From NCBI GenBank assembly GCA_038841535.1, contig JAWBTQ010000004.1:38271-102270 (forward strand): a DNA stretch of 64,000 bases. Reading direction: 5' to 3'. The DNA is from Sulfolobales archaeon (GTDB taxonomy: Archaea > Thermoproteota > Thermoprotei_A > Sulfolobales > NBVN01). Numbering within the stretch: the first letter of the stretch is position 1; the number at the start of each line of letters is the position of its first letter. Below the pieces are notes generated by a model, which saw nothing but the letters and a program-made list of their open reading frames with translations, was not told the origin of the DNA and did not search any database. Positions 16,806-35,385 of this stretch are shown here, piece after piece. The position numbers and the translations under genes are program-made.

Positions 16806-17264
16806 CTACTTAGTTTCGCTTAATATTTTTTTAACGGCTCTCAGGATGTTTATATATCCTGTACACCTACATATATTCCCGATTAAAGCTCTCTTAACAT
16901 CCTCTATGTTTCTTATCCCTTTGGTGATAGCGGCATATATTGTAGTGAGAAAGCCGGGAGTACAATAACCGCACTGAATAGCTCCTTCCTCAAGCATGGC
17001 GTCTATGATTATCTTGCCTACATGTGTTTGAGCTATATAGTCTGGTGTGACGACCTCGTAACCGTCAACTTTGGCAGCTAATACCAAGCAGGAAGTTACT
17101 GGTTTACCGTTCAAGAGTACGGTACATGAACCGCACTCACCAACGCCACAACCATACTTTACGCTCTTTACCTTCAGCTTGTCCCTTAAGACATTTAAAA
17201 GAGTCTCGTGAGGCTCTACTTCTACTTCAGTGACTACCCCGTTTAGTCTAAACTTGATCTTCAT
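16806..17264 (-). CDS. Molybdenum hydroxylase small subunit, 2x[2Fe-2S] (CoxS/XdhC-small type)
   Basis: GCGVGECGSCTV (plant-type 2Fe-2S) and QCGYCTPG...CRCTGY (second 2Fe-2S). Confidence 0.9.
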   Translation of the reverse strand: MKIKFRLNGVVTEVEVEPHETLLNVLRDKLKVKSVKYGCGVGECGSCTVLLNGKPVTSCLVLAAKVDGYEVVTPDYIAQTHVGKIIIDAMLEEGAIQCGYCTPGFLTTIYAAITKGIRNIEDVKRALIGNICRCTGYINILRAVKKILSETK

Positions 17265-18166: not shown

Positions 18167-20512
18167 CTAGTCACCTCCCTTGAGGGATTTAAGCACTTTT
18201 TCGGGAGTTATCGGAATCTCGTAGAACCTAATGCCGATAGCATTATAGATGGCATTAGCAACAGCAGCGATTACCGGGTTCGACGCCGCCTCTCCAAGAC
18301 CTTTAGCACCGAAAGGTCCGTAGGGCTCGTAGGTAGACGCAAAGACTACTTTAAAGCTCTCATCGCCCGGAAGGTCCATAATTGTGGGTAACTTGTAGTC
18401 GGATAGACTTAGCCTGTGTGCGGGCTCACCATCTTCTAAGTAAACTACTTCGTCTCCTACGGCCCAGCTCCACCCTATAGCAAAGCCCCCGTGGATTTGA
18501 CCAGCCGCTAACTCAGGGCTAATAACTGTACCGATGTCGGCCCCAGCCGCAACTCTAACGGGTTTAATAATTCCGGTTTCAGTATCTACTTCCACTTCAA
18601 CGAAATACACTGTAAAGCTGGGTGGAGCGACAGTCGCTCTGTAGCTCACCGAAGCTGATATAGAGCCCCAATTCCTTTGCCAAGCGATTCTAGCTACCTC
18701 ACTCAAGGAAATTCTCTTCTCTGGAGCCCCTTCGACAAATATAACGGCGTCGTTTAATTCCTTATCGTACTGGATCCTCAAGGCTTCTGGGCTAACAGCA
18801 TCTAGTATTCTGGCAGCATATTCCAGAATCTTCTTTTTTACCTCTGAAGCCGCTCTCCTGGCAGCCTCACCACCAGCAAAAACTCCTCTAGAGGCGTGTG
18901 TGCACACGTCGTAAACGGTTGTCGAGCTGCCGGACCACACTATTCTTATCTTACTTGGTGGAATCTTCAGTTCCTCAGCAATGATCTTGGCGTGGGCATC
19001 TAGAGTACCACCACCATGATCCTGGAGAGCGGTTATGTAGTCGATCGTCCCGTCCTCGTTTACCTTAACTATCGCGCCTGTGTAATCTATAACGGCACCC
19101 GAGAGAGGGCCTCCGGCTCCTGAAGTATGAAAACCCCTTCCAACGCCGATGCCTCTTCTATACCTACCGGTCTTTTCTTTTGGGTTTCCCCTATTTTTCC
19201 AGCCTATGAGCTCTGAGCATTTACTTAATAGCTCTGGGACTCCGTCGCTTCTAATGATAGACCTAACTGTAGGACCTTGACCCCAGAAGATCTCGCCCTT
19301 CCCTCTATAGTTTACCAACCTGAAATCAAGAGGGTCGATTCTCAGTTCTTCAGCTATCTCATCTATTACCGTCTCGACCGCCCAAGTGATTTCTGGGGCA
19401 CCATAGCCACGTATGGCACAGGAAGGTACCTTATTTGTGTAAACTGCCTTACCGTGATACCTCAATGCCTTCCACTTATACAGTGAGACGAACCAGCCCA
19501 AGCTAGCACCGAGGAGTGGATAAGCTTGTATTTGATGAGCACCTATATCAACGATATTCTCTAGCTCTCCAAATGTGATAATACCCTCGCGAGTAGCTCC
19601 AGCTCTAACCTTCATATAGAACTCGTAGCTTGTGTGGTCGTGAACCATGTCTTCTTCTCGGGTTAGTACTAACTTCACCGGCTTTCGGGATTTAAGGCAT
19701 AAGCTAACAGCTATCAAAGTAACTAGGTTTGTGTGTATGCTAGACCCGAAACCTCCCCCTATAGGAATCTTTCTTACCTCTAACTTATTCATGGGTATTC
19801 CATAGACTTGCGAGATCAGTATCTTAGTGTTGTGAATAGTTTGTGTCGTAGTCCACACAGTTAGAGACCCGTCTGCCTCTATCTTACAGACAGCTCCCTT
19901 GGGCTCCAGCTGCGCGTGATATCTCCTGGATGCGTGGAACTTTCTCTCTATAACGACGTTGGATTTTCCTTCTTCCGTTTCTAGGTCACCCTCGGAGTAC
20001 TTAATTTCAGCAGCAACGTTGTTTCTTACTTCTATCCACTGCCTTCCTCTCTGAATTCTGTCGTGAATAAGCCTAGTGCCCGGGGACATAGCCCCAAACG
20101 GGTCTAGCATGGGTTCGCAGACTTCTTCGAACTCCACTCTTAAAGCCTCGAGAGCTTTCTGAGCTGAGTCTTCTGTAGCAGCAGCTACAGCGGCTATTGG
20201 TTCGCCGACGTACCGGGGTTCTCTTGTCAGGATTCTCCAGTCTTTAAATGTGTCCTCTTCCACGCTAACAAGCCTGGGATTAAACAGCACGTCAGGAACG
20301 TCTTCCGGGGTTAAAACTACAGCACCCATGGCCTCTGCTAGAGAGCTATCAATTCTTCTAACTCTAGCGAATGCGTGAGGACTCTTGAGTATTCTCCCGT
20401 AGAGCATGCCAGGGATCTCTATGTCGAAGGTGTACTCAACAAGCCCAGACGCCTTAGCGAAGCCGTCATGGCGTGGTAGACTTTTTCCTATAAATTCATA
20501 CACTAACTCCAC
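18167..20512 (-). CDS. Molybdenum hydroxylase large subunit, molybdopterin-binding (xanthine dehydrogenase / aldehyde oxidase family)
   Basis: 781 aa with IGGGFGSS, AIRGYGAPE and GLGEA motifs. Substrate not assignable. Confidence 0.9.
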   Translation of the reverse strand: MELVYEFIGKSLPRHDGFAKASGLVEYTFDIEIPGMLYGRILKSPHAFARVRRIDSSLAEAMGAVVLTPEDVPDVLFNPRLVSVEEDTFKDWRILTREPRYVGEPIAAVAAATEDSAQKALEALRVEFEEVCEPMLDPFGAMSPGTRLIHDRIQRGRQWIEVRNNVAAEIKYSEGDLETEEGKSNVVIERKFHASRRYHAQLEPKGAVCKIEADGSLTVWTTTQTIHNTKILISQVYGIPMNKLEVRKIPIGGGFGSSIHTNLVTLIAVSLCLKSRKPVKLVLTREEDMVHDHTSYEFYMKVRAGATREGIITFGELENIVDIGAHQIQAYPLLGASLGWFVSLYKWKALRYHGKAVYTNKVPSCAIRGYGAPEITWAVETVIDEIAEELRIDPLDFRLVNYRGKGEIFWGQGPTVRSIIRSDGVPELLSKCSELIGWKNRGNPKEKTGRYRRGIGVGRGFHTSGAGGPLSGAVIDYTGAIVKVNEDGTIDYITALQDHGGGTLDAHAKIIAEELKIPPSKIRIVWSGSSTTVYDVCTHASRGVFAGGEAARRAASEVKKKILEYAARILDAVSPEALRIQYDKELNDAVIFVEGAPEKRISLSEVARIAWQRNWGSISASVSYRATVAPPSFTVYFVEVEVDTETGIIKPVRVAAGADIGTVISPELAAGQIHGGFAIGWSWAVGDEVVYLEDGEPAHRLSLSDYKLPTIMDLPGDESFKVVFASTYEPYGPFGAKGLGEAASNPVIAAVANAIYNAIGIRFYEIPITPEKVLKSLKGGD

Positions 20513-20592
20513 CTGCAGGTTACTAGTACCTTTAGATAAAAGCTGAAGCTAATATTTGGTATGTACCTATTAAGTTTCGGAGATGATGGGAT

Positions 20593-21939
20593 ATGGGGGT
20601 TTTACTTAGAGGCGGTGCTTTAGTATTTAGAGACGCTCTCATCGAGGCGGATATCCTAATAGAAGACGGTAAGATATCAAGAGTTGGAAGATCTGTTGAC
20701 TCAGGTTACTCTAAAACCGTAGATTTGCGGGGTAAGCTCATAATGCCTGGAGCCGTCGACCCTCACGTACATGGTAGAGAGCCCGGATTAGAGTACAAAG
20801 ACGATTTTCTTCATACCTCCAAAGCGGCTCTTCTTGGAGGAGTAACTACAGTACTCGAAATGCCCAACACCATTCCTCCGGTAGACAGTCCCATTAAGCT
20901 TTTTGAAAAGAAGTCTGTCTTATCAAACAGGTCTTACGTAGATTTCGGTCTTTACGCAGTACTATACGACTACGCTGACGACATAGATCGCCTAGGCTCG
21001 AGGATGGTGGAGTTAGTTGAGAGTGGTGCCATAGCATTCAAAGCGTTTATGGCTCAAACTACTGGGAACCTTCCCCCACCTAGCTTCATGACCGTTCATA
21101 CAGCACTAGAGCTCTCCAAGAAGCTAGGCTACACTGTGGTCTTTCATGCTGAAGACCGAGGCTGTGTCGAGTTCTTCACGTCTAAGGTAAGGAAGGAGGG
21201 AAAAGGGGGTCTTCGAGCATACAGTGAAGCCAGGCCCCCGCTATGCGAGGAGTTAAGTATAGGGTACATAGCGTCTATAGCTGAAGCAACCGGTGGAAGA
21301 GCCTACATAGCTCATCTTAGTACCGCCTCAGCCTTAGGAATTATAGACAAGTATAGGAAGGCTTTGACCAGCATCAACGTTGAAGTAACACCAACATATC
21401 TGTTCTTCGACTACGAAGAGCACGAAAGTCTTGGTACACTGGTTAAAGTGAATCCACCAATAAGAAGCCATAAGAATAGAGCGAAACTTTGGGCAGCCCT
21501 AGCTAGAGGACTAATTGACGTTATAGCATCGGATCACGCACCACACGCTGAGCACGAAAAGAAGACCGACTTCTGGGAAGCAGCAGCTGGGGTGGCATCA
21601 GTACAACACCTAGTTCCCCTCATGTTGGCATCAGCTCTAGACGGGCTCATACCTCTAGGTAAAGTAGTTGAGCTATGTTCGGAAAACCCAGCTAAAATAT
21701 TCGGTCTCTATCCTATGAAGGGCTCGCTACTACCCGGAGCGGACGCAGACATGGTCGTAATAGACCCATCAGTTGAGTACGCAATTGCGAGGGAGTCTCT
21801 AGCCTATAAAAACAAGCTTACTCCCTACATAGGGAGGAGGCTCAGGGGGCGTATAGATAAAGTATTTCTAAGAGGAGAGCTTGTAGTAGACGGAGGCAGC
21901 GTTTTAGTAGAAAAACCTACTGGTAGGGCTCTAAAGTAA
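20593..21939 (+). CDS. Cyclic amidohydrolase (dihydroorotase / allantoinase / dihydropyrimidinase family)
   Basis: DPHVHGREPGLEYKDDF, a carbamylatable-Lys region (AFKAFM), and ASDHAPH. The motifs are closest to class I dihydroorotase, but the isofunction is unresolved. Confidence 0.8.
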   Translation: MGVLLRGGALVFRDALIEADILIEDGKISRVGRSVDSGYSKTVDLRGKLIMPGAVDPHVHGREPGLEYKDDFLHTSKAALLGGVTTVLEMPNTIPPVDSPIKLFEKKSVLSNRSYVDFGLYAVLYDYADDIDRLGSRMVELVESGAIAFKAFMAQTTGNLPPPSFMTVHTALELSKKLGYTVVFHAEDRGCVEFFTSKVRKEGKGGLRAYSEARPPLCEELSIGYIASIAEATGGRAYIAHLSTASALGIIDKYRKALTSINVEVTPTYLFFDYEEHESLGTLVKVNPPIRSHKNRAKLWAALARGLIDVIASDHAPHAEHEKKTDFWEAAAGVASVQHLVPLMLASALDGLIPLGKVVELCSENPAKIFGLYPMKGSLLPGADADMVVIDPSVEYAIARESLAYKNKLTPYIGRRLRGRIDKVFLRGELVVDGGSVLVEKPTGRALK

Positions 21940-22146
21940 TAGCTAGCTCGGCAAGTAAAATCAACGAATCGTATAAGTCATTACCATCCTTAAATCCCTG
22001 GAGTACTCGTTGTTATATGTTTCGTACAATTTGTCGGATCCTCCATACTCTTTATCGATAGGATCATCTACGCGTACAGACACCTAGTTTAAGACCTAAG
22101 AAAGCCCTGTTTTACTTAATCTTATTTTCTTAGCAATAATTAATTA

Positions 22147-23019
22147 ATGGGTTCGGTAGATTTGGAGGATGTTGTACTTGTATCAACAATAATGGAGTAC
22201 CTAAAGAAAGGGATGAAGGTTGCTCTTTGTGAGGTAGTATATAAAGAGGGTTCGGCTCCTAGAGATGTAGGAGCTAAGATAGTCGTCGGTGAAGATGGGC
22301 TTAAAGTAGGGACGATTGGTGGTGGTTTATTTGAATCTGAGCTTGTATCAGACGCTCTCAAAGCTATTGCGGAGGGTAGGTCGAGGTTGGTGAAGTACTC
22401 GTTTACTGGTAAAGCTGTTGAAGGAGCGAAAGACACCGGTCTATTGTGTGGTGGGGTTCTCTGGGTCTTTATAGATGTTTTTGCGCCACCTCAGAGAGCT
22501 CTAGTTATTGGCCTAGGAAATGTTGGTAGACCCCTATCCCACATCTTGAAGCTAATGGGTTTCGAAGTTCACGCTTTAGATACAGATAAAGAAACAGAGA
22601 GAATAGCCGGGGATTTGGGTTTGTCGTCCGTCTTCGTGGGAACTATAGAGGGAATAGCTAGTAGGATACGCGAGATCACTAAAAGAGGAGATCAGGTATT
22701 CGTAGTGTATGGAGACGTACACGCAGACTACGTGTTTGTCAAAGAATCACTTAAAACAGAGGCAAGTACCATCTGGCTACTAGGTAGCAGAAGGAAGGTA
22801 GCCGAATTCGTTAAGAAACTAATTTCGGAGGGGTTTAGTTCCGAGGACTTAATCAGGAGATTAAGAGCTCCAATAGGTATAGATATAGGAGCTGATACTC
22901 CAGAAGAAGTAGCTATAAGCGTAGCAGCCGAGCTCGTGGCCCTGAGGCGAGGTGCTAACGCTAGGAGCCTAAACGCAGTGCCTCAGCTAGTAGCAGAACT
23001 CACGAGAAGTAGCACTTAG
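22147..23019 (+). CDS. XdhC/CoxI-family molybdenum cofactor insertion accessory protein
   Basis: N-terminal XdhC_CoxI pattern (LCEVVYKEGSAPRDVGAKIVVGEDG...GTIGGG) plus a Rossmann-like C-domain (VIGLGNVG). Confidence 0.8.
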   Translation: MGSVDLEDVVLVSTIMEYLKKGMKVALCEVVYKEGSAPRDVGAKIVVGEDGLKVGTIGGGLFESELVSDALKAIAEGRSRLVKYSFTGKAVEGAKDTGLLCGGVLWVFIDVFAPPQRALVIGLGNVGRPLSHILKLMGFEVHALDTDKETERIAGDLGLSSVFVGTIEGIASRIREITKRGDQVFVVYGDVHADYVFVKESLKTEASTIWLLGSRRKVAEFVKKLISEGFSSEDLIRRLRAPIGIDIGADTPEEVAISVAAELVALRRGANARSLNAVPQLVAELTRSST

Positions 23020-24769: not shown

Positions 24770-26044
24770 CTAAGGCTGTGTGTTGGATAAGTGCAGTAGG
24801 TGTACTGAGCATGATATGCACGGGTCATAGCTTCTAACGATCCTCTTAGCGATGTCGATGGCTCTAGTATCAGCACTTGCACCAAAGAGCTTGCTCATTA
24901 TCACATTTTCCATCGAAGCCAGATTTTGAGCTGTTGGAGTCACTATGTTGCTATTTCGAACTCTCAGTTCTCTATCTAAGTTATACCTATGGTATAGGAT
25001 CCCCCTAGGTGCTTCTGTAGCCGCTACGCAAGCACCTCTTGGTGCCGTCCTAGGTTCGGTTCTAGTAACCGACCTCTCTCGATATTCGTCGAAAAACTCC
25101 TTGAGTTCTAAGAGAGTATGGTATGTTTCAGCTATTCGAGCTACTACACTCTGGTAGATGTTCTTGAGGCTCTCTCCGTAGCCATATTCGCTAATTAGCT
25201 CTTTAGCTTCCTCCCTTAAGTACTTGTAGTAGAGATTGTACCTTGCCAGAGGTCCAACAGCGTAGGGCTCTCCAGTTATCAATCTATACCTAAGCGCATT
25301 AGAGTACCCTACCTGCTCAGTGAGTACGAAGTTCTCAAAAGCTTCTACTTTAGCAGAAGAGCCGTCATCAGCAACTACACCACTCCCAACCCACGGGTAC
25401 CGGGTTCCGTTTTCTACAGCCATATACCTTAGCCTATGGACTTCAACCGGTATGCTGCCGAGGTCTAGCACGAACTTAGCTATGTCTATAAAGTCTCTTA
25501 TTACTTTAGGTAGGTCATGCTTAAGTTTTTCGACTTTACTAGCACTCGGGAAACTATATACCCCACCAACACGTATGTTAAGCACGTTATGAAATCTTCC
25601 TCCTAGGGTTTCCATAACCTTTCTAGACCAGAGAACTATTTCTGTACTCTTGCTAAAGATATGTGAATAGCTTTCCGAAAGCTCTTTCAGAGAGCCGATC
25701 TCGAGAAAGTCCGGTAAGTGGAGAAGAGCTACGTGAATAACGTGGCTCTTAACTCTTTCTGCTGCTAATACTGCTAGCCTCAGCCTTTCTTCATCTTCCG
25801 GCACCTCTATAGATAGGCAGTTCTCGAAGGCTTTAGAAGCGGTGAGAGCGTACGAAACACCGCACAGTCCGCATATTCTACTAGTTAGGTCCGGGACCTC
25901 AAAGCACCTCCTTCCCCTAACTATGTACTCGAAGAATCTCGGTGCTTCAGTTATCTTAATTTCGACGCTAGTTACTCTACCGTCAGAAGACTTAAGCACT
26001 ACCTGACCTTCTCCTTCAACTCGAGTTAGAAGTCCGGACAGCAT
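24770..26044 (-). CDS. [NiFe] hydrogenase large (alpha) subunit, group 3b sulfhydrogenase-like
   Basis: N-terminal RICGLCG and C-terminal DPCISCSVH metal-binding motifs, with a 9-aa C-terminal extension. The operon order and sizes match the Pyrococcus-type beta-gamma-delta-alpha arrangement. Confidence 0.9.
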   Translation of the reverse strand: MLSGLLTRVEGEGQVVLKSSDGRVTSVEIKITEAPRFFEYIVRGRRCFEVPDLTSRICGLCGVSYALTASKAFENCLSIEVPEDEERLRLAVLAAERVKSHVIHVALLHLPDFLEIGSLKELSESYSHIFSKSTEIVLWSRKVMETLGGRFHNVLNIRVGGVYSFPSASKVEKLKHDLPKVIRDFIDIAKFVLDLGSIPVEVHRLRYMAVENGTRYPWVGSGVVADDGSSAKVEAFENFVLTEQVGYSNALRYRLITGEPYAVGPLARYNLYYKYLREEAKELISEYGYGESLKNIYQSVVARIAETYHTLLELKEFFDEYRERSVTRTEPRTAPRGACVAATEAPRGILYHRYNLDRELRVRNSNIVTPTAQNLASMENVIMSKLFGASADTRAIDIAKRIVRSYDPCISCSVHLLHLSNTQP

Positions 26045-26051
26045 TGTTGGC

Positions 26052-26822
26052 TCACCTACTAGAAGAAGACTTAGTGAGAGACGAGTAGCTAAACGCTTTA
26101 AGCATGGCCATAAAGTCTTCTCTACTCATCCCAAGTCTCTCCACCACCTTCGAGAACTCCTCTAGCTTCTCTCTATCTACTATAAGTGCGTTAAGACCGT
26201 AGCACCCATAGCAACCACGCCTAAAGCTTGGGCAGAGCGCTCCACAGCCGGATAGAGTTATTGGACCGAGGCACGGTTTTCCATCAAATACTGTTACACA
26301 TAGTATCCCCTTTCTCTTGCACTCCGAGCATAAGCTCTCAACTATCGGGGACTCGCTTCCCCCCATCACTAGCTTAACTAGAAACCTAGCTAAAGCCTCT
26401 CCGTTAGCCGGACAGCCAGAGAATCTGTAATCTACGTTTACTACGCTATCTACGCTCTTAACTTCTGGTAGCACCTTGATATGGTCGGGGTTTGGGTAGG
26501 AGGCTAAAACAACAGTTCTAAGATCCTCTCCTGCTCTCAGAGACTGTACTCCACCGAAGACAGCGCAGGTACCTAGAGCTATTAGTACTCTAGATTTCTC
26601 TCTAACCTGCTTAACTAGCTCTTCCTGCTCGCTGTTCGCTATAGAACCCTCAACTATGGCTACATCTACATCTTCAATAGCGTTTGAGTCCTGTAGTTCA
26701 GTAAAGTAGGATATGTTGAGGTACCTCAGTAGCTCAGCGCGTGCTACTAGTGAGTAAAGCACCTCGTTTAAGCATCCAGAGCACGAGGTCAGCTTCAAAA
26801 CTGAGACACTAAGTTTCCTCAT
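26052..26822 (-). CDS. [NiFe] hydrogenase small (delta) subunit, group 3b-like
   Basis: Proximal cluster motifs CSGC, GTCAVFGG, GCP. The medial/distal cluster block is CSECKRKGILCVTVFDGKPCLGPITLSGCGALCPSFRRGCYGC. Confidence 0.9.
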   Translation of the reverse strand: MRKLSVSVLKLTSCSGCLNEVLYSLVARAELLRYLNISYFTELQDSNAIEDVDVAIVEGSIANSEQEELVKQVREKSRVLIALGTCAVFGGVQSLRAGEDLRTVVLASYPNPDHIKVLPEVKSVDSVVNVDYRFSGCPANGEALARFLVKLVMGGSESPIVESLCSECKRKGILCVTVFDGKPCLGPITLSGCGALCPSFRRGCYGCYGLNALIVDREKLEEFSKVVERLGMSREDFMAMLKAFSYSSLTKSSSSR

Positions 26823-27646
26823 AGTCCTCTCACCGTCACATACTGTTTTACGTCTTGGTAACTAAACACCGGTCCATCTTTGCATATAAAGTAATGACCC
26901 AGTTGACACGTGCCGCAGATCCCTATACCGCATCTACACCTCCTCTCCAGTGATAGGAACACCCTATCCTCTTTTACGCCCTTCTTTACGAGCTTGTCTG
27001 CAGCTACCTTCATCATTACCTCTGGACCACAAACGAACGCAACTGTGTTCTGCAGGTTAAATTTAACTCTGTCTATAAGGTCTGTTACAAAGCCTACATG
27101 ACCCTTCCAACCGGAATGCGGTATGTCTATAGAGAACAGAATTGTGGAGTTCGGTATTTTACTGTACTCCTCGTATTCGTACTTAAATAGCATATCTACA
27201 GGTCTTCTAGCTCCATAAAGGAGTATGAAGTGCCCGTAGAGACTCCTATTCTCGGCTACGTGCTTTATTAGCGCTCTCAGTGGAGCTAACCCTATTCCAC
27301 CGCCTATAACAAGGACGTCATGGCCCTCAAATTCGCGGATAGGCCAACCCCTACCGTAGGGCCCGCGAATCCCCAGGTAGCTACCCACACCAACGTTAGT
27401 GTAGATGTAATTAGTTACTGCTCCTACAGCTCTAACGGTGTGCTCCACTAAGCTCCTATCTCCTGCTGCATAGTTTGATATAGAAATGACTACTTCACCC
27501 ATACCCTTTACATAGAGAACATCAAACTGACCTGGTAGTGGTGTCGGAAAGCCGTCGACCACTATATGGTATGTTCTAACTAGTGGGGCCTCATCTACTA
27601 CTTTAGTTACCCTCCCTTTCATCGGAATGAGTTTATCTACCGGCAT
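26819..27646 (-). CDS. Sulfhydrogenase gamma-like subunit (FAD/NAD(P)-binding oxidoreductase with C-terminal 2Fe-2S, PyrK-like)
   Basis: Ferredoxin-reductase-type fold (GGGIGLAPL) and a C-terminal CRCGIGICGTCQ cluster. Confidence 0.85.
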   Translation of the reverse strand: MPVDKLIPMKGRVTKVVDEAPLVRTYHIVVDGFPTPLPGQFDVLYVKGMGEVVISISNYAAGDRSLVEHTVRAVGAVTNYIYTNVGVGSYLGIRGPYGRGWPIREFEGHDVLVIGGGIGLAPLRALIKHVAENRSLYGHFILLYGARRPVDMLFKYEYEEYSKIPNSTILFSIDIPHSGWKGHVGFVTDLIDRVKFNLQNTVAFVCGPEVMMKVAADKLVKKGVKEDRVFLSLERRCRCGIGICGTCQLGHYFICKDGPVFSYQDVKQYVTVRGL

Positions 27647-28721
27647 ATCCTACAGCCCTCGAGACAACCTCCTTTAAGTCTATGCCCATAGGACACCAGG
27701 TAATACACCTTCCACACCCAACACAACCTGGAAGGCCAACTTGTTTTTGATAAAAGAGAAACTTGTGTAGCACGAAGTGTCTGTACCTCATAAAAAGCTC
27801 TGGTCTGAAGTGCTGACCAGCAACTTGACCATACGTAAACGAAAGACAGCCGAACCAGTGTCTATCACGCCAGGCTTTGCCTGATAGATCAGCATAGTCG
27901 TTAAACTCCGTGCAGAAGCATGTTGGACATACCATGTTGCAGTTAGTGCAGCCAACGCACCTCGCTGAAGCCTCTCTCCAGAATCCCTCTGCGGCAGCTA
28001 CATCTTCAAGAGCTCTGACTACGACATTAAATGGTGGAATTCGAGAAGCCTCTTTCCTAGCTTCATTTAAAGCTTCATCATACATTCTTAACGTCTCTTC
28101 TGAAGCAGGAGTGATACCTACTCTCTCAACTAGCTTAAGCCCTTTCTCGGAGCCTACCTTAAACAGCACTTGATCACCTAACCTAGCGTACGCTATATCG
28201 TACCCCTTCGATACGGCAGGTCCTGTCCCGATCGAGCCACAGAAACACGTACCTCCAGGTTCAACACACTCTTCTACCACTATATACTCTATGCGTGCCC
28301 TTCTAGCCTGGTATACGTCATCGCGTTCTAGAACTTTATCAAGCACTTCGATAGCGGCAAGATCGCAAGGTTTTATTCCAAAAAGTACTGATGGAGGGAA
28401 GTCGTCCTTAGTTCGCACTATCTCGAAGTCATCGGAGATCTCGTAAACAACCTGAGTTGGGTAGTGCAGGAGATGCTTAGGGGAGTACTGAGTGTGCCTA
28501 AAGACTCCCTTTACTTCTTTAGCAAGCCTGTAACTCCCGGGGCTCTGTATGTCTGTGTAGTCGATTAGTAGGTCGCTTAGTCTGCTCACTTCTCCAATCA
28601 CAGGTAAGTCTCCTTCAAGTTTGTAAGATAACACTCTCAGTCCTAGCTCCTTTAGAGCAAGTATGAGGTTCTCTAATAAGAGTACACTGCCCTCGAAGTA
28701 TTCTCCAAGCATTCTTGACAT
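27633..28721 (-). CDS. Sulfhydrogenase beta-like subunit (4Fe-4S, AsrA-like)
   Basis: CVGCTNCNMVCPTCFC and CVGCGRCITWCP cluster motifs; first gene of the operon. Confidence 0.85.
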   Translation of the reverse strand: MSRMLGEYFEGSVLLLENLILALKELGLRVLSYKLEGDLPVIGEVSRLSDLLIDYTDIQSPGSYRLAKEVKGVFRHTQYSPKHLLHYPTQVVYEISDDFEIVRTKDDFPPSVLFGIKPCDLAAIEVLDKVLERDDVYQARRARIEYIVVEECVEPGGTCFCGSIGTGPAVSKGYDIAYARLGDQVLFKVGSEKGLKLVERVGITPASEETLRMYDEALNEARKEASRIPPFNVVVRALEDVAAAEGFWREASARCVGCTNCNMVCPTCFCTEFNDYADLSGKAWRDRHWFGCLSFTYGQVAGQHFRPELFMRYRHFVLHKFLFYQKQVGLPGCVGCGRCITWCPMGIDLKEVVSRAVGYAGR

Positions 28722-28834: not shown

Positions 28835-30133
28835 TTAGCAGACTTTAAACATCCTCCTAATGTCGCTTAACTTAGTTACTCTCTCTTGGAATATCGCGCT
28901 AAATCTCTTTTTGTTACTTAATGGCTGTCCTCCACCCATTAAGCAGCCACCAGGACATACTTCAAACACTGGTAGACTCTTTTCATTTCGAAAGCTCGTG
29001 AGGTTGGCAGGAGGGTATACCTTAGTAACCTCTCTCTGCCTAAGGACTACGTAATCGGGGTATTCATCAGTTAGCGTATCGTAGTTAAGTTTCTTGAGAG
29101 CTATCTGCGCTTCCCGCGCAGTCAGCACTCTTGGGAGTACTCTTTTCCAAGATAGGCACTGAGTGATATAGACTACTCCAGGTGGTATGTTTAGCTTGGG
29201 CTCGATAGCTTTAACTCCAGGTGCTAAAGTTTGAAGTATCTTTTTCTCGGCTAGCGACCTAGCTACTATCACTTCCTCAGTTCTTAAATCGACTTCAGCA
29301 AGTGGGTCGTATACCGTGACCCTTTCGAATCCGATAGCCTTGAGTCCGCAAATGACCTTAAGCGGGTCTAGTCCCTCAGCTTCCGATAAAGAAGCTATGA
29401 CCTCGGGCTCTACGTACGCCTCAGATACGTGTCCTCTTCTAATTTCAGCGAGTACTTTATCTACATCTAAGCTGTACGTAATGGATCCAGCAGGACAGTA
29501 TGCAGCACAGAGTCCGCAGTAAACGCAGCCGGACTTTCTGAAGGGTTCTCCATAAGGTGTTGAGACTAAAGTCTCTATACCTCGGTTAACGTAGTTAAGT
29601 ACCTTAGCCCCGATCTTCGAGCATATTTCAACGCACCGTCCGCACACAAAGCACTTAAGCTGGTCGAACTTCATTAACTCGTCCTCTATCACTTGACCTC
29701 CTCGCTCGATATAACTAAATCTTTTCTCACTAACTATCCACTTAAGCCCTGCCGCTATCTTCTTAATTAATTCAATAACTTCTGATGGCTGAGCCGGACA
29801 GCCTCTTACGTAGCAATCTACCTTAACATGGCTACTCACAGGTTTTGACAGACCTAGAGCTCCTTGTACGCCTCCTAGACATGCGCAACTACCTAGGGCT
29901 ACCAAGACCTTTGCTTTGCTTCTAACTCTGTGGAGTAGCTCGAGGTCTCTCCCGCTCAGTACCGACCCCTCGACTAAGGCTACATCAACGTCATCGACTT
30001 CTTTACCTATTCCAGCTAGCGGCCAGTAAGTTAGTGAGATGTCGTCTCTCTCTAAAAGGTCGGCAAACTCTTTGCTCACCAAGTTGTACTGACAGCCATC
30101 GCAGCCAGATAGGGCCACGATCGCAACCTTCAT
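28835..30133 (-). CDS. Fusion protein: [NiFe] small-subunit N-terminal (proximal-cluster) domain + 2x[4Fe-4S] ferredoxin + degenerate [FeFe]-hydrogenase H-domain
   Basis: Residues 1-135 carry CDGC, GSCACLGG, GCPAQP. Then come CFVCGRCVEICS and CVYCGLCAAYCP. Then Fe_hyd_lg_C-like blocks follow: YVEPEVIASL, LKAIGFERV, ITQCLSWK, VLTAREA, FEVCPGGCLMGGGQP. Confidence 0.85.
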   Translation of the reverse strand: MKVAIVALSGCDGCQYNLVSKEFADLLERDDISLTYWPLAGIGKEVDDVDVALVEGSVLSGRDLELLHRVRSKAKVLVALGSCACLGGVQGALGLSKPVSSHVKVDCYVRGCPAQPSEVIELIKKIAAGLKWIVSEKRFSYIERGGQVIEDELMKFDQLKCFVCGRCVEICSKIGAKVLNYVNRGIETLVSTPYGEPFRKSGCVYCGLCAAYCPAGSITYSLDVDKVLAEIRRGHVSEAYVEPEVIASLSEAEGLDPLKVICGLKAIGFERVTVYDPLAEVDLRTEEVIVARSLAEKKILQTLAPGVKAIEPKLNIPPGVVYITQCLSWKRVLPRVLTAREAQIALKKLNYDTLTDEYPDYVVLRQREVTKVYPPANLTSFRNEKSLPVFEVCPGGCLMGGGQPLSNKKRFSAIFQERVTKLSDIRRMFKVC

Positions 30134-30140
30134 TAATCTA

Positions 30141-31412
30141 TCACCTCACTTTAACGACGTGAACGGCACACGGGATACACGGGTCGTAAGCTCTAACGAG
30201 CGCCTCTATGTACTTCTGTATAGTTGAATCACTAGCGCCTTCAGCGAGAAGTTCTTTGGCTATAGAGGTTGCGGACAGCTCTACGTGCTCTGTATTCATG
30301 ACTGTCGGAGTAGCTATATCAGCCCTAACGACTTTTAGGTCTTTATCTACCTCGTAGTAGTGTATCAGTAACCCTCTCGGAGCTTCCACAACACCTAGAC
30401 CAGCTGACGCACATCTCGTAGTAGCCGGCTGTAGCTCTAGGTCTCTAGATGAAAGCTCACTGACGTCTTGAACTATGGAGTCGAACATCAGCTTCGATTC
30501 TATTGCTTTAGCGTAGATGTTGGAGTAGGGGTTTTCTTTAAGCTTTTTCTCAAAGCTAGCCACAACACCTCTAGTCTCACCGTCGAGTTCGTTGTACTCT
30601 AGTGCACTTAAGAGTCTAGCTCTAGCTCCAACGTAAAACGGGTAGCCTAAGAATAAGCACTTTTTGCTACTAGAGTACTCAACGTGTAGTTCGTTAAAGA
30701 GCTCTCTATAGTTCTCTAAGGTAGTAGCGAACCTTCCAGTAGGTGTATTTAAGCTGTAGGGCTGGCCTCTTGGGACAGTGGACCTAGTAGACCCCGATAG
30801 AGCAACGTACCTAGGTGATGGGTCTCTAGAGTTCGGAAGCTCGATGTCTAGCACTCTCTCTGTGAAGCCCTCGAGGTGGGGCCGCACGGATTTTAGTAGC
30901 TCAAGTGCTGACATGAATACTCTACGGCTGACGTCGGATAGGAACCTCCCCATAGAGTAGTTATTGGGTGACGTAAGTCTGCCGCATACGAGCTTAATGA
31001 CCTTGTTTAAGTAGGTGTTGATCTCTAGAGACTTCTTCGCGAGCTGCTCAGAAGCTTCCCTACTTAAGTAGTCCGGTAGCGCTAGAACCCCTAAGTGAAT
31101 TACGTGGTTCTGAATAAAGCTCAGCTTATTGCATACGTCCCTCAATCTGACAGTGTCTTCAGAGGCTTCTACCCCTGCGATTTGCTCAACAGCTAAAGAC
31201 GCTGCCCAGAAATGGGGGTGGCTACACACTCCGCAGATCCTTGAAGCTATAGCTGGTACTTCACTAACTTTCCGCCCGATGACTAAGTTTTCGAATCCTC
31301 TCAGGCTTGCTACTGAGCTATACGTGACTCTCGCAGAGCCGTCGTATATCAACACCTCTACCTTGGACTCACCGGCCACTCTAGGTATTTCCCAGCTTAG
31401 TGACTTACTCAT
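30141..31412 (-). CDS. [NiFe] hydrogenase large subunit (group 3, NAD(P)-linked type)
   Basis: RICGVCSHPH and DPCIPCAVH motifs; only a 5-aa C-terminal extension (VVKVR). Confidence 0.9.
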   Translation of the reverse strand: MSKSLSWEIPRVAGESKVEVLIYDGSARVTYSSVASLRGFENLVIGRKVSEVPAIASRICGVCSHPHFWAASLAVEQIAGVEASEDTVRLRDVCNKLSFIQNHVIHLGVLALPDYLSREASEQLAKKSLEINTYLNKVIKLVCGRLTSPNNYSMGRFLSDVSRRVFMSALELLKSVRPHLEGFTERVLDIELPNSRDPSPRYVALSGSTRSTVPRGQPYSLNTPTGRFATTLENYRELFNELHVEYSSSKKCLFLGYPFYVGARARLLSALEYNELDGETRGVVASFEKKLKENPYSNIYAKAIESKLMFDSIVQDVSELSSRDLELQPATTRCASAGLGVVEAPRGLLIHYYEVDKDLKVVRADIATPTVMNTEHVELSATSIAKELLAEGASDSTIQKYIEALVRAYDPCIPCAVHVVKVR

Positions 31413-32068
31413 GGTTTACCACCCTTCGTGACTACCTCCCTTAGTCTCTCGGGTAGATTGCTCCAGAAAAACTTCATAGTAGCCTCGATCTCCTTTACGT
31501 CTATTCTATACCTCCTGTATAGCTCCACTGTAGCGTCTTCCCAAATCCTTGAGTCACTTAAGTACCCCCGACACCCCACACACGGAGCTCCGTAGCGAGG
31601 GCATTCAGCAGAACAGCCGGCGACAGTCAGAGGTCCTAAGCACGGCTCACCCTTTGTGATGAGGCATTCATCCCCTATGAGTGGGCACTCAGAGCACACC
31701 GGTAACCCTTCGATACCTAGCTGCTTCGATACTTCGAGTAGGGTACAGTTCGACTTCCTTATGCAGCTCCAGCACTTGACTCTATGTGTCGATAGCAGTA
31801 GCTCTAGGTTGGTCCTTCTATACCTAGTGAGCTCATCACCTTCCGTCACTATTTTAGCTTCCTCAGATACCGGGAACCTACATGAGGGAACGACTCTCCC
31901 GTTAACTAGGACTACGCATATTCTACAAGTAGCTTCCTCGAAGAGTCCCTCGAGATAGCAGAGTACGGGGACTCTAAACCCAGCCTTCTCAACAGCATCT
32001 ATTACGAAAGCGTTTCGTGGTACCTCTACCCGTACGCCATTTACGTAAACTCTAACCGCGTCCACCAT
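31409..32068 (-). CDS. Fusion protein: HydA/NuoG/HoxU-type N-terminus (2Fe-2S + His-ligated 4Fe-4S) + [NiFe] small-subunit C-terminal (medial/distal cluster) domain
   Basis: CYLEGLFEEATCRIC..C (2Fe-2S) and HRVKCWSCIRKSNC (HxxxCxxCxxxxxC). Then CSECPLIGDECLITKGEPCLGPLTVAGCSAECPRYGAPCVGC follows, collinear with the delta subunit of the neighbouring operon. Confidence 0.85.
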   Translation of the reverse strand: MVDAVRVYVNGVRVEVPRNAFVIDAVEKAGFRVPVLCYLEGLFEEATCRICVVLVNGRVVPSCRFPVSEEAKIVTEGDELTRYRRTNLELLLSTHRVKCWSCIRKSNCTLLEVSKQLGIEGLPVCSECPLIGDECLITKGEPCLGPLTVAGCSAECPRYGAPCVGCRGYLSDSRIWEDATVELYRRYRIDVKEIEATMKFFWSNLPERLREVVTKGGKP

Positions 32069-32071
32069 CTC

Positions 32072-33892
32072 TCACACCTTCCTAATTGCTCCAAAGGGAC
32101 ACGCGATCAAGCATTGACCGCACTTAGCGCAAAGCTCTTCCCTTACTTTATGGACTTCTCCCGGCGAGCCAGATATCGCACCGGTAGGGCAGGTCTTAGC
32201 GCACTGCGTGCAACCCCTGCATAGGGCTGGGTCAATAACGTACTTAACTAACTTAGTGCAGACTTTAGCTGGACACCTACGATTGATTACGTGTTCTACG
32301 TACTCGTGTTTAAAGTACCACAGTGTCGACAGTATGGGGTTGGGTGCCGTTCCCCCGAGTGCGCAGAGGCTTGACTTAGCTATGCTCTCACCGAGCTCTT
32401 GAGCGAGCTCTATATCGTCTATCGTTCCAGTACCACTCGTAATCCTCTCCAGTATGTTGCTGAGCTGCTTCATGCCAACTCTACAAGGGAGGCACTTCCC
32501 GCAGGATTCAGCTAGAGTAAAGCCGGTGAAGAACTTTGCTACATCAACCATGCAGTTACCGTCGTCAATGACTACTAAACCTCCAGACCCCATTATGGCA
32601 CCGTAGCTCTGCAGGCTCTCGTAGTCCATCTCTAGGTCCATTAGCTCAGCTGGAATGCATCCCCCACTAGGACCTCCTATCTGTACAGCCTTGACTTTCC
32701 TACCCTCCGGAGGTCCTCCCGCTATATCGAAGACTAAGGTCTTTATCTTAGTCCCCACAGGCACTTCGTAAACCCCAGTCCTCTTGACGGCCCCAGTAAC
32801 ACAGAACATCTTAGTTCCTTTCGACTTGTCCGTTCCGTACTTAGTGAACTCGGCTACACCACTCTGGAATATCGTAGCAACGTGAGCAAGAGTCTCCACG
32901 TTGTTTATGACTGTTGGTTTTCCCCGCAGTCCACTAGTCGCAGGATAGGGAGGCCTCTGCCTCGGTCTAGAGCGGCCCTCTATAGCTGCTATTAGTGCTG
33001 TTTCTTCTCCACACACGAACGCACCCGCACTCCTATAGACTTCTACGTCGAAGTCGAACCCGGAGCCCAGGATGTTCTTCCCCAGGAACCCCGCTCTTCT
33101 TGCGTCGTTGACTGCTTTCTCTAGTCTTTCAGCCATAAGGGGTTTCTCGGCTCTAACGAAAATAAACCCTTTAGTCGCCCCAATAGCGTAGCCGGCGATT
33201 ATGAGCCCCTCTAGAACTCTATGGGGGTCTGATTCAGCGAGGAGCCTGTTCATGAAGGCACCAGGGTCTCCTTCGTCACCGTTGCATATTACGTACTTAA
33301 CGTCGCTCTTTTGTTCGTACGCTACCTTCCACTTAAACCAGGTCGGAAAGCCAGCTCCTCCTCTTCCTCTAAGACCGGAAGCCTTAACTTCCTCTATTAC
33401 TTTCTCTCTACTCATACTCAAAGCTCTCTTAAGTCCCGAGTACCCACCGGTCTCTACATAGTCTTCGATGGACTCAGGGTTTATTAAGCCGCAGTTTCTG
33501 GAAACGTACCTCGTCTGAAGTCTCCAGTAGTCTAGTTCGTCTAGCGACGGCGGGTCTCTAGAGTCTGTTTTGAATCTTACCGCAGTAGCTCCAGAGAGGT
33601 CTCCCTCTAAATACCTCTTCAAGATCTGTGGGACTTGGTCGGGCTTTACGTTTCCGTATAGTGCCGGAGGCTGTCCTTCTTTAGCTACCTCGATCCAGGG
33701 ATCCATAAAGCAGAGACCGGTACACCCTACTGTATACACTTCGGCGTCTAGCTTTAGCTCTTCGACAGCTCTGCGAACTCTTCTATATACTTCTTCAGCA
33801 CCTGCAGCAAGAGTACAGCTAGCTATCGGCACCCGTATTCTAAAGCCTTTACTACCGTACAGTATCTTCCTCAGAGTAGCCTGCGGCAGCAA
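32072..33892 (-). CDS. NuoF/HydB-like NAD(P)H-binding flavoprotein subunit with extra N-terminal Fe-S domain and C-terminal 2x[4Fe-4S] domain
   Basis: GGAGFPT (FMN), GDEGDPGAF, ESCGKCLPCRVG (N3 cluster), C-terminal CRGCTQCAKTCP and CAKCGQCLIACP; 606 aa. Confidence 0.9.
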   Translation of the reverse strand: MLPQATLRKILYGSKGFRIRVPIASCTLAAGAEEVYRRVRRAVEELKLDAEVYTVGCTGLCFMDPWIEVAKEGQPPALYGNVKPDQVPQILKRYLEGDLSGATAVRFKTDSRDPPSLDELDYWRLQTRYVSRNCGLINPESIEDYVETGGYSGLKRALSMSREKVIEEVKASGLRGRGGAGFPTWFKWKVAYEQKSDVKYVICNGDEGDPGAFMNRLLAESDPHRVLEGLIIAGYAIGATKGFIFVRAEKPLMAERLEKAVNDARRAGFLGKNILGSGFDFDVEVYRSAGAFVCGEETALIAAIEGRSRPRQRPPYPATSGLRGKPTVINNVETLAHVATIFQSGVAEFTKYGTDKSKGTKMFCVTGAVKRTGVYEVPVGTKIKTLVFDIAGGPPEGRKVKAVQIGGPSGGCIPAELMDLEMDYESLQSYGAIMGSGGLVVIDDGNCMVDVAKFFTGFTLAESCGKCLPCRVGMKQLSNILERITSGTGTIDDIELAQELGESIAKSSLCALGGTAPNPILSTLWYFKHEYVEHVINRRCPAKVCTKLVKYVIDPALCRGCTQCAKTCPTGAISGSPGEVHKVREELCAKCGQCLIACPFGAIRKV

Positions 33893-34400
33893 TACTGCCG
33901 AACCCCGCGGTACTAGCCGCTCTAGACTTGTAGCTTAAGATAAGCCTCCTACTCTCAGTCGGTGTGAGCTTACCGTGAACGTATCTCTCGGAGCCATCTG
34001 AAGAGACAACCATGGCAACCGGGGCTAGGCTACAGCAACCGAAGCACCTCGCCTTTTCGATAGTGAGAGAGCCGTCCTCCGTCGTAGTTCCTCCGTCATT
34101 AAGTCCGACTGCTCTCCTCATCGCTTCGTAAACCTCTGAAGAACCCCTCAAGTAGCACGCTGTACCAAAGCATACGTATGCTACGTACTTACCCACCGGT
34201 TCGAGCCTGAACTGGTGGTAGAAAGTAGCTACGTTGAGGACTTCAGCGAGAGACACTCCTAAGCGCCTAGATACCTCTTCGAGGCTTTCTCTAGGTAAGT
34301 ACCCAAACGTTCTTTGAACTTCTTGAAGAATATTGATCAGCTTACTTCTATCCGTACCGATCCTCGAAACTACGCTCTCAACGAATCCTCTAGGATCCAC
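33852..34400 (-). CDS. NuoE/HydC-like 2Fe-2S thioredoxin-like subunit
   Basis: VCFGTAC and RCFGCCSLAP motifs; GTG start; overlaps the next gene by 41 nt. Confidence 0.85.
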   Translation of the reverse strand: MDPRGFVESVVSRIGTDRSKLINILQEVQRTFGYLPRESLEEVSRRLGVSLAEVLNVATFYHQFRLEPVGKYVAYVCFGTACYLRGSSEVYEAMRRAVGLNDGGTTTEDGSLTIEKARCFGCCSLAPVAMVVSSDGSERYVHGKLTPTESRRLILSYKSRAASTAGFGSIAAAGYSEEDTVR

Positions 34401-34488: not shown

Positions 34489-35385
34489 CTATACCTTGGG
34501 GAAGAAGTACTTGCACCTACACGCCTTATTTCTAACACACCTTCCTAAGACTACCTCCGATATCCTAGAGGTTAAGTACTTGATGTTTCTACAGATTTCG
34601 TTTCGACACTCTGTTTCTCCCAACAAGCTGAGGACCTTGATCACGCTGTTGACAGCTGTTTCAACGTCTTGAACTAGGGTAGCACTTATAGCCGCTCTCG
34701 ACAGCTCTAGGACTCTCGACAGCTCTACGTCTTCGCTTAGCTTAGGTTGCTCGACTCCTACTAAGATGTCGAAGAGCTCCTTGATGTACTCAATTGATAC
34801 GGCTAGGTCTAGAGCTTCGTAGGGGTCTATAGAGCCGTCGGCAACACCCTGCTTTATGGTTCTAAGGAAGTACAGGTACTTTCTGTAGAACTCTCTGTAT
34901 GTAGCGGGAGTAGAGGGGTTTCTCTCTTCAACGCAGTCTATGAGCTTGCTAGAGGTAGCTTCGATGGTTTTTAAGAGCGAGAGGAGGTCTGTCTTTACGT
35001 CAGAAAAAACTAGTTCGTGGATATTCGAACCCGGGTTAGCCATGAGGACGAAGCTCGTTACATAGTCCTTAAGGCTCTCAGAGAGCTCTAGAGACTGCTC
35101 ATAGCTCGACTTTATCTTAACTCTCGTTACTCCCTCTACGTAGGAGGCAACTAGCTTCCTAATTGCTAGGTCGCTAGACTCGTACTCTATTAAGACGTTG
35201 ACTTCCTCGCTTTGCTCACTACTCGAAGATGGAACTACAGTTATCTTAGAGCCATCGAAGTAGAGGCTAACTCTATCTCCAGGTTTAATACCTAGAGCGT
35301 CAGCCCACCTCTTCGGCACTATTATAGATAGAGAACCCTTACCAACCACGTTCACTTTCTTGACTAAGCGCTCAGACATCTGCAC
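34489..35385 (-). CDS. AbrB/SpoVT-domain + PhoU-like domain transcriptional regulator
   Basis: N-terminal swapped-hairpin pattern VGKGSLSIIVPKRWADALGIKPGDRVSLYFDGSKITVVP, followed by a helical PhoU-like repeat region. The likely start is ATG at 35379 or GTG at 35385. Confidence 0.75.
   Translation of the reverse strand: MQMSERLVKKVNVVGKGSLSIIVPKRWADALGIKPGDRVSLYFDGSKITVVPSSSSEQSEEVNVLIEYESSDLAIRKLVASYVEGVTRVKIKSSYEQSLELSESLKDYVTSFVLMANPGSNIHELVFSDVKTDLLSLLKTIEATSSKLIDCVEERNPSTPATYREFYRKYLYFLRTIKQGVADGSIDPYEALDLAVSIEYIKELFDILVGVEQPKLSEDVELSRVLELSRAAISATLVQDVETAVNSVIKVLSLLGETECRNEICRNIKYLTSRISEVVLGRCVRNKACRCKYFFPKV

Follow-up and report, generated by a model that had tools for sequence, protein, structure and literature searches.

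The closest described relatives of the system reported here are the 'hybrid hydrogenases' of Greening et al. (Cell 2024, PMC11216029). In the text of that paper, a fusion of a [NiFe]-hydrogenase small subunit with an [FeFe]-hydrogenase, HyhS-HydA, is classified as group F [FeFe] and group 3f [NiFe] and is encoded contiguously with HyhL, HydB, HydC and a four-cluster conduit subunit, HydD, in 21 genomes including Thermoproteia and Bathyarchaeia. The same text states that the cysteine ligands of the H-cluster are conserved in the group F fusions and that one artificially matured full-length fusion from Thermoplasmata made H2, and in 2024 the hybrids were introduced as having two H2-active sites. 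A second point of reference is the NiFe-HydABCSL complex of Acetomicrobium mobile (NiFe-Bfu; Feng et al. 2022, PMC8880783; PDB 7T2R/7T30), in which the H-domain is devoid of the H-cluster motif and carries a [4Fe-4S] cluster, A5, the A4/A5 branch, situated at the dimer interface, being described as a dead end and 'most likely nonfunctional'; its HydA (692 aa) is unsplit, and its HydS is a separate subunit of 179 aa with one cluster. The present work concerns a five-gene hydrogenase cluster on the minus strand (28835-34400) of a 64,000-nt stretch of DNA from a Sulfolobales archaeon (GCA_038841535.1, contig JAWBTQ010000004.1, positions 38,271 to 102,270; hereafter, the window), and in particular its last gene, which encodes a fusion protein of 432 aa. 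This protein represents a clade that keeps the fusion and the operon of the hybrid hydrogenases, with an [FeFe] half that is almost certainly a non-catalytic stub.

The fusion protein combines in one polypeptide the N-terminal half of a [NiFe] small subunit (residues 1-135), a 2x[4Fe-4S] ferredoxin module (residues 150-221) and a C-terminal H-domain remnant (residues 222-432), namely the same three modules as in the group F/3f hybrids. Thirty-three homologues of this architecture were gathered and aligned, resulting in a 35-sequence alignment with 27-94% identity to the window protein, and the region following the ferredoxin module was re-aligned for 24 members. In the small-subunit domain, which matches MvhG, FrhG and the delta subunit of P. 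furiosus sulfhydrogenase (SHI) in the PDB, C11, C14, C83 and C112 are invariant in the 35 sequences; in the ferredoxin module, collinear with the F-cluster domains of HydA (8a6t_A, 7p5h_A), the same is true of C161/164/167/171 and C203/206/209/213. The AlphaFold2 (AF2) model of the full-length protein has a predicted local distance difference test (pLDDT) score of 86.7 and a low-confidence linker at residues 135-143, a flexible interdomain linker being a further feature shared with the hybrids. A direct Pfam scan left the last 210 residues of the fusion protein without any assignment, and the [FeFe]-hydrogenase family PF02906 (Fe_hyd_lg_C) gave no match to it at E<=1.

A preliminary description of the locus, centred on the interval 28835-29462 (minus strand), i.e. 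residues 225-432 and the stop codon of the 432-aa open reading frame (ORF), had nevertheless proposed that the last ~200 residues run collinear with the [FeFe]-hydrogenase H-domain, and this proposal was borne out. With the whole fusion protein as query, the best PDB matches were HydA subunits of [FeFe]-hydrogenases (8a6t_A, E 2.6e-24, query 138-282 to residues 123-272, with a second collinear stretch at the P3 motif). The similarity extends past the ferredoxin module: when the profile was built solely from residues 222-432 of the 24 members, 43 distinct [FeFe]-hydrogenase sequences of the PDB were matched along three collinear stretches, with E values from 3e-9 to 5.6e-5, and the first match of another kind followed at E 0.27. 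Compared by hhalign with 12 bacterial HydA sequences (loci L062-L078), the same profile gave a probability of 98.7% (E 2.4e-16) over 138 columns that exclude P3. The AF2 model of the remnant alone (pLDDT 89.9, predicted TM-score 0.88) yielded 57 Foldseek matches in the PDB at E<=1e-3, with E down to 1e-6, and the top 50 listed are all [FeFe]-hydrogenases (query-normalised TM-score 0.54-0.66); Foldseek results for the whole protein were set aside as proof, since the ferredoxin and small-subunit domains add to the score. Finally, an exhaustive HMMER profile search of 1.84 billion representative proteins returned 93 proteins at E<=1e-3, the top ~20 of which share the reduced architecture; ten matches were sampled and all carry PF02906, nine of them lying outside the reduced clade and the tenth (P0193) belonging to its basal relatives. 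Residues 222-432 are homologous to the [FeFe]-hydrogenase H-domain, independently of the ferredoxin module.

The opposite interpretation, that the resemblance is a generic ferredoxin or Cys-motif similarity and a chance match beyond the 2x[4Fe-4S] module, could be drawn from the missing PF02906 match and from a single-sequence phmmer search of residues 225-432 against the PDB, which was borderline (E 0.0012) and driven by the P3 motif only. The protein also stays under every curated family cut-off, scoring 90 bits against 765 for NCBIfam FeFe_hydrog_A6 and 70 against 406 for TIGR02512, both models covering residues ~150-276 only. The probability of such a chance match is nonetheless practically nil, as it is ruled out by the ferredoxin-free profile search, by the hhalign comparison without P3 and by the separate fold match, confined to H-domains among the matches listed. 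Moreover, basal relatives carrying PF02906 and full-length fusions bridge the family to the canonical enzymes, with 11 of the 35 aligned sequences, presumably including the full-length fusion P0034, matching PF02906. The HMMER comparison with Fe_hyd_lg_C put forward in the preliminary description thus fails for the window sequence and succeeds for part of its family, and the negative scan reflects the limited sensitivity of a single sequence, not a refutation.

The general layout of the canonical enzymes (CpI, TmHydA and TkHydA; PF02906) is still recognizable: an F-cluster ferredoxin module is followed by a two-lobed H-domain fold with the P2 cysteine, the P3 CxxxCxxGGGQP motif and the 'APxVR-like', 'LGFxxV' and 'LTxRE' landmarks in the same order, whereas TSCCP, the proton pathway, the Lys358 equivalent and ~160 aa are missing and a [NiFe] small-subunit domain is fused in front. 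The remnant has 211 aa, whereas full-length fusions devote ~330-340 aa to this domain and bacterial HydA ~370 aa; it is shorter than usual by 110-160 aa, in agreement with the ~150 aa estimated earlier, and about one third of the length has been lost. In CpI numbering, the proton-relay cysteine is C299, the cubane cysteine C300 and the CN-binding lysine K358, and the proton path runs through E279, E282, R286, S319 and C299; the second P3 cysteine of CpI bridges to [2Fe]. The P1 motif TSCCPxW is not found in the fusion protein, which has 'ARSLAE' in its place, with R292 at the position of the proton-relay cysteine and S293 at that of the first cubane-ligand cysteine; the residue at the R292 position varies across the family. 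At P2, C326 is present and invariant, while the CN-binding lysine is replaced by W329 in the window protein, likewise by Trp in its closer relatives, and by Arg in the other branches, a Lys or Arg being found one residue after the P2 lysine position. At P3 (FEVCPGGCLMGGGQP), both cysteines (C393 and C397) and GGGQP are kept, and the conserved Met before the first cysteine is absent. Three of the four ligands of the cubane [4Fe-4S]H (C326, C393 and C397) have therefore survived, as had been noted before. Of the eight segment pairings tabulated in the preliminary description, all appear in the computed alignments and two need correction. The segment 'QTLAPGV', formerly placed at P1, aligns with the downstream 'EKYxPE' helix, P1 being occupied by 'VARSLAEK'; and 'TEE' is not the homologue of 'MEE', because the segment with the equivalents of E279/E282/R286 is deleted. 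In the hhalign alignment, the segments bearing the E279/E282/R286 and S319 equivalents of bacterial HydA are gaps in the query. Since the proton-relay cysteine, the Lys358 equivalent and the proton-path segments are lost, a [2Fe] catalytic subsite is very unlikely, and the remnant, judged by its motifs, is almost certainly non-catalytic. The earlier idea that the catalytic apparatus is gone, leaving a structural or electron-transfer relic, is thus sensible, with the P1 cysteine pair among the losses.

These features bear directly on whether the protein could be a true hybrid, with the C-terminal domain acting beside the [NiFe] site as a second, [FeFe]-type H2 site with a minimal H-cluster and unusual ligands. 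Its fusion architecture and gene cluster are those of the group F enzymes, one of which produced H2 after artificial maturation, and it retains the P2 cysteine and the CxxxC-GGGQP of P3. According to the text of Greening et al. (PMC11216029), ultraminimal active [FeFe]-hydrogenases with an average of 286 residues occur in DPANN archaea, and archaea with active enzymes likewise lack the HydEFG maturases, so that the absence of maturases from the window is indecisive. Neither hyp nor hydE/F/G genes were found in the window; its two radical-SAM genes (2647-4242 and 45879-47405) are both of B12-binding types, neither HydE nor HydG, and its AIRS-domain gene is ThiL-like. Against a second active site stand the replacement of the cubane cysteine by Ser, of the relay cysteine by Arg (at a position variable in the family) and of the K358 equivalent by Trp, the deletion of the proton-path segments, the absence of the Met residues flanking the [2Fe] site, a domain 110-160 aa shorter than functional ones, full-length fusions included, the failure of PF02906 to detect it, and a constraint that is relaxed relative to the rest of the protein. 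A true hybrid is accordingly very improbable. The described group F/3f enzymes have ~570-590 aa and all H-cluster cysteine ligands, whereas the window protein has 432 aa and a P1 serine, is PF02906-negative, and is without the proton path and the lysine.

The reduced fusion is not peculiar to the window. A survey of archaeal genomes of the kind suggested in the preliminary description, with one genome scanned per GTDB species, found it in 61 loci, all from metagenome-assembled genomes (MAGs), mostly of Sulfolobales/Desulfurococcales-type archaea, Zestosphaera, Ignisphaera, Pyrodictiaceae, Thermofilaceae, Bathyarchaeia and Ca. Wolframiiraptor. The clade is thus mostly Thermoproteota, with one locus (L005) labelled Archaeoglobales, and spans ~60 species-level genomes of uncultivated archaea, among them hot-spring and sediment lineages. 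A near-identical counterpart of the window, with 94-100% identity for each protein, is the Thermoproteota MAG contig JAUQPH010000011. The five-gene order is kept in essentially every locus with enough flank, and the P1 cysteine is missing in all ~60 members. A search with the sole 571-aa relative, P0034, delimited three size and motif classes of HyhS-HydA fusions. Class I fusions (~570-590 aa) have 'SWCP' at P1 and are detected by PF02906; class II fusions (~495-515 aa; proteins P0091-P0157) have 'SWC[K/L/R]' at P1 and 'PCxxRCxxGGGN' at P3 and are mostly missed by PF02906; class III fusions (~425-475 aa), to which the window protein belongs, have the P1 cysteine replaced by Ser in S-x-[A/V]-E (S-Y-S-E in one MAG). 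Two bacterial relatives retrieved with the class II series, P0136 and P0140 (859-869 aa; P0140 is labelled Planctomycetota), additionally carry response-regulator and histidine-kinase ATPase domains.

In the neighbour-joining (NJ) tree of the ferredoxin and H region, constructed with a simple distance correction and rooted on bacterial HydA, all fusions formed one clade (100/100), within which class III (100) and class I+II (100) were each monophyletic and sister to one another. In this tree of surveyed fusions and bacterial HydA, the window protein is placed in a clade separate from, and sister to, the full-length plus ~500-aa forms. Two proteins with longer H-domains, P0198 (487 aa, P1 'PCC') and P0193 (501 aa, P1 'PCS'), pair as sister to class III, with 66 and 88 out of 100 bootstrap replicates placing them next to it. 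Because these basal relatives still bear P1 cysteines and a longer domain, the comparison suggests a stepwise, derived loss of the P1 cysteines (CC -> CS -> xS). If so, the series from full-length through ~500-aa, 'PCC' and 'PCS' to 'xS' forms would constitute a natural record of H-cluster dismantling in which the [4Fe-4S] pocket was partly kept. Apparently independent shortening of the H-domain is seen in P0197, P0202, P0256 and P0259 (~450 aa), unfused HydA-like proteins with [2Fe-2S], His-[4Fe-4S] and ferredoxin modules, in which a short H-domain of ~210-230 aa retains all four cubane cysteines.

The fusion as such, which the preliminary description had taken to be undescribed, was already on record with the identical five-gene cluster in the text of Greening et al. 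(Cell 2024, PMC11216029), and a dead H-domain is not a new idea either, that of A. mobile NiFe-HydABCSL holding a plain [4Fe-4S] (PMC8880783). What appears to be new is a large, conserved and undescribed sister clade in which the P1 cubane cysteine has given way to Ser in S-x-[A/V]-E and a third of the domain has been lost. The P1-less form is not mentioned in the text of Greening et al. (PMC11216029; supplementary Table S2 aside), and no relevant later account of a degenerate group F form turned up in a search of the literature. The selection filter given in that text combines a hidden Markov model (HMM) bit score >=15.9 with a CxxxC motif, and class III proteins could pass it; surveys counting such genes as [FeFe] on the grounds of CxxxC and a weak HMM score would overestimate the [FeFe] capacity of archaea.

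The remnant is conserved, not decaying. C326 is invariant, C393, C397, S293, E296 and 'EPE' (residues 242-244) are present in at least 90% of the 35 sequences, and S293 and E296 are invariant in the 24-sequence alignment of the C-terminal domain. Across the related loci, the Ser, the Glu and the P2 cysteine are kept wherever those positions are covered, and no locus extending as far as P3 lacks its CxxxC. Relative to the 94%-identical orthologue L001, the ratio of nonsynonymous to synonymous substitutions (dN/dS) is 0.42 for the remnant, against 0.10 and 0.06 for the small-subunit domain and the ferredoxin module, respectively, and mean pairwise identity is 0.39 in the remnant versus 0.49 and 0.61 in the other two domains; constraint is thus relaxed yet purifying. 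As regards the function of the conserved residues, the motif pattern makes it most likely that the site still binds a simple Fe-S cluster, predicted to be either a [4Fe-4S] with one oxygen ligand or a [3Fe-4S], held by C326, C393 and C397 together with S293 or E296.

Alternatively, the remnant could be metal-free, a folded spacer or interface for the ferredoxin and NiFe modules in which the conserved Cys, Ser and Glu are structural. The equivalent branch of A. mobile lies in the dimer interface and was judged nonfunctional for electron transfer (PMC8880783), conservation within the fusion protein is lowest in the remnant, and P3 or its GGGQ is lost in some members (P0033, P0194, and Thermofilaceae with 'GSGA/GSGI'). 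However, three cysteines survive at the exact cubane-ligand positions across lineages with 27-40% identity to the window protein, the place of the fourth ligand is taken by an invariant Ser, followed at a distance of one helical turn by a conserved Glu, in a pattern typical of a metal site and not of packing, and in A. mobile the relic carries a cluster, A5. A metal-free domain is therefore considered unlikely. Still somewhat further from what is expected is that the Cys3-Ser(-Glu) site, together with the nearly invariant acidic 'EPE' patch, which lies where canonical enzymes hold the distal CN ligand, forms a distinct metal or redox site of a NiFe bifurcating complex, such as a cluster of tuned potential for ferredoxin entry or exit or a regulatory cluster, or that the lineage is the rooting homologue of the [FeFe]-hydrogenases; both are rather improbable. 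According to the text of Greening et al. (PMC11216029), a 'non-hydrogenase homologue' for rooting the [FeFe]-hydrogenase tree is missing, and a CC -> CS -> xS lineage in that role, if true, would bear on an origin of the H-domain in archaea, attached to a [NiFe] enzyme.

The composition of the five-gene cluster gives the context in which a simple Fe-S or structural role of the remnant is to be seen. HydB has the full architecture of bifurcating (Bfu) B subunits, i.e. an N-terminal [2Fe-2S]-like region, an FMN/NAD site and a C-terminal 2x[4Fe-4S] region, and matches them over nearly its full length (7t2r_B, 9n5u_B, 7q4v_B, 7p5h_B and 8a6t_B; E 1e-181 to 1e-199 overall, with residues 25-606 matching 7t2r_B at E 2e-190), whereas the non-bifurcating Nqo1/NuoF and HoxF proteins in the PDB match its core only (residues ~137-535). 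HydC is matched by the NCBIfam HoxE/NuoE models with scores under their cut-offs and is syntenic in nearly all related loci. HyhL has both metal-binding motifs intact (RICGVCSHPH, residues 58-67, and DPCIPCAVH, residues 410-418); its nearest solved structures are alpha subunits of group 3b sulfhydrogenases (5yxy_A, 6e-37), and 7t2r_D was also matched. HydD is a chimera: residues 1-120 correspond to the N-terminal module of HydA/NuoG with [2Fe-2S] and His-ligated [4Fe-4S] (residues 5-127 match the HydA N-terminus in the PDB), and residues 122-215 to the C-terminal half of a [NiFe] small subunit, with its two clusters, matching residues 161-254 of P. furiosus SHI delta (E 4.7e-20) and, by BLASTP, the window's own ShyD (48% identity over 46 aa). 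By its domain content, HydD is thus the reciprocal partner of the fusion protein, with HydA and the small subunit each cut and joined to the other, a swap that suggests modular assembly of the electron-transfer chain.

Taken together, the five genes probably encode a cytoplasmic hydrogenase that is the archaeal counterpart of NiFe-Bfu (HydABCSL) and a close relative of the group F/3f hybrids. Its activity is, with a comparable degree of likelihood, that of a NiFe-only hydrogenase of the Bfu type (bifurcating or confurcating), the relic having at most a simple Fe-S cluster or a structural role. H2 would be made or split solely at the [NiFe] site of HyhL, and electrons would travel by way of the proximal cluster, housed in the N-domain of the fusion, and the clusters of HydD to HydB-HydC, where, by analogy with NiFe-Bfu, FMN may couple NAD(H) with ferredoxin. 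The C-terminal 210 residues would be the product of reductive evolution of an [FeFe]-hydrogenase H-domain, in which about a third of the length, the proton pathway, the [2Fe]-holding residues and one cubane cysteine out of four were lost. Together with the ferredoxin module, the relic would form a side arm, with the predicted terminal cluster at its end, beside the ferredoxin module, and the relic might serve mainly as scaffold or interface, like the dead-end A4/A5 branch of the A. mobile NiFe-HydA.

The likeness to A. mobile NiFe-Bfu comprises a NiFe large subunit, a HydB/HydC bifurcating core, an Fe-S conduit derived from HydA and an H-domain that has lost the H-cluster motif, with a plain dead-end cluster in A. 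mobile and possibly in the relic. In contrast to the undivided A. mobile subunit, the window HydA is split: HydD combines its N-terminal module with the C-terminal half of the small subunit, and the fusion protein combines its ferredoxin module and H-relic with the N-terminal half. No sequence similarity is detectable between the C-terminal domain of the A. mobile protein and the relic: 7t2r_A matches the ferredoxin part only and is absent from the matches of the relic profile. The two degenerations are therefore probably independent.

Several points weigh against the interpretation as a NiFe-only enzyme with a cluster-bearing relic. Cluster binding by three cysteines with Ser or Glu is read from sequence patterns; all 61 loci of the clade are from MAGs. 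A full-length group F fusion did mature to an active enzyme in the text of Greening et al. (PMC11216029), so family grounds alone are insufficient to dismiss activity. The remnant is the least constrained part of the protein, by both dN/dS and identity, which fits a purely structural role as well, and the P3 region has decayed in places (GGGQ in some Thermofilaceae and in P0194, the whole motif in P0033). The trees, being simple-distance NJ, leave the deep branching order insecure. Finally, a NiFe-only model leaves unexplained those Bathyarchaeia loci in which no [NiFe] large subunit is adjacent.

In these Bathyarchaeia loci (L054, 5812-7197; L057; L060; L041, 8001-9434), HydC-HydB-HydD and the reduced fusion occur without an adjacent [NiFe] large subunit; in L054, the fusion gene is followed by tRNA synthetases, and in L041, by an HdrA-MvhD fusion and an MvhG/MvhA-like pair.

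Table 1. Coordinates of the fusion protein, its domains and motifs, and the other genes of the hydrogenase cluster in the window.
Feature	Position	Strand	Basis
HyhS(N)-ferredoxin-H-domain-relic fusion protein, 432 aa	28835..30133	-	ORF, Pfam, PDB matches, alignment, AF2
N-terminal half of [NiFe] small subunit, proximal [4Fe-4S], residues 1-135	29729..30133	-	Pfam Oxidored_q6 3.5e-22 (residues 11-125)
2x[4Fe-4S] ferredoxin module (HydA F-cluster domain), residues 150-221	29471..29686	-	Pfam Fer4 families
Reduced [FeFe]-hydrogenase H-domain remnant, residues 222-432	28838..29470	-	Profile vs PDB, hhalign, AF2 and Foldseek, exhaustive profile search
P1-equivalent 'VARSLAEK', residues 290-297	29243..29266	-	MAFFT and hhalign alignments to 'TSWCPS' and 'TSCCP'
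P2-equivalent 'ITQCLSWK', residues 323-330	29144..29167	-	Alignments
P3-equivalent 'FEVCPGGCLMGGGQP', residues 390-404	28922..28966	-	Alignments
HyhL, group 3 [NiFe]-hydrogenase large subunit, 423 aa	30141..31412	-	Pfam NiFeSe_Hases 4.8e-29
'HydD' conduit subunit, 219 aa	31409..32068	-	Pfam Fer2_4, NADH-G_4Fe-4S_3
HydB / NuoF-like FMN-NAD(H) subunit, 606 aa	32072..33892	-	Pfam Complex1_51K, SLBB, NADH_4Fe-4S, 2x Fer4
HydC / NuoE-like thioredoxin-like [2Fe-2S] subunit, 182 aa	33852..34400	-	Pfam 2Fe-2S_thioredx 6.7e-42

Two other assignments of the fusion protein were considered and rejected. The known Nar1/NARF proteins are eukaryotic and unfused and keep all four cubane cysteines; an identity of this kind, in the cytosolic iron-sulfur protein assembly (CIA) pathway, was rejected since the gene lies within a hydrogenase operon. 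A sensory role like that of group C/D HydS was rejected since the fusion protein is without a PAS or signalling domain.

Among the related sequences, L008 (labelled Pyrobaculum sp.) and L009 (Desulfurococcaceae) are MAG contigs with different taxonomic labels whose fusion proteins agree in length and in every motif string and whose genes show the same identities to the window, which is probably due to binning or labelling inconsistency; the Archaeoglobales label of L005 may be another such case. In addition, seven separate stretches of P0188, a protein of 4122 aa, are matched by positions 167-204 of the profile, its P3 region (E 1.2e-26).

In the surroundings of the cluster, a second complete [NiFe] operon of the sulfhydrogenase (group 3b-like) type, composed of four genes for beta, gamma, delta and alpha subunits, is located on the minus strand (24770-28721), 114 bp downstream of the fusion gene, and the tandem arrangement is also present in L001. 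Directly upstream of the hydrogenase cluster and on the same strand, a gene at 34489-35385 encodes a possible regulator, a protein of 298 aa that starts with a DNA-binding domain of the AbrB/MazE type. Further away, a xanthine-dehydrogenase-family molybdoenzyme cluster (16806-23019) harbours a [2Fe-2S] subunit, an FAD subunit and a 781-aa molybdenum cofactor (MoCo) subunit on the minus strand, and an amidohydrolase and XdhC on the plus strand.

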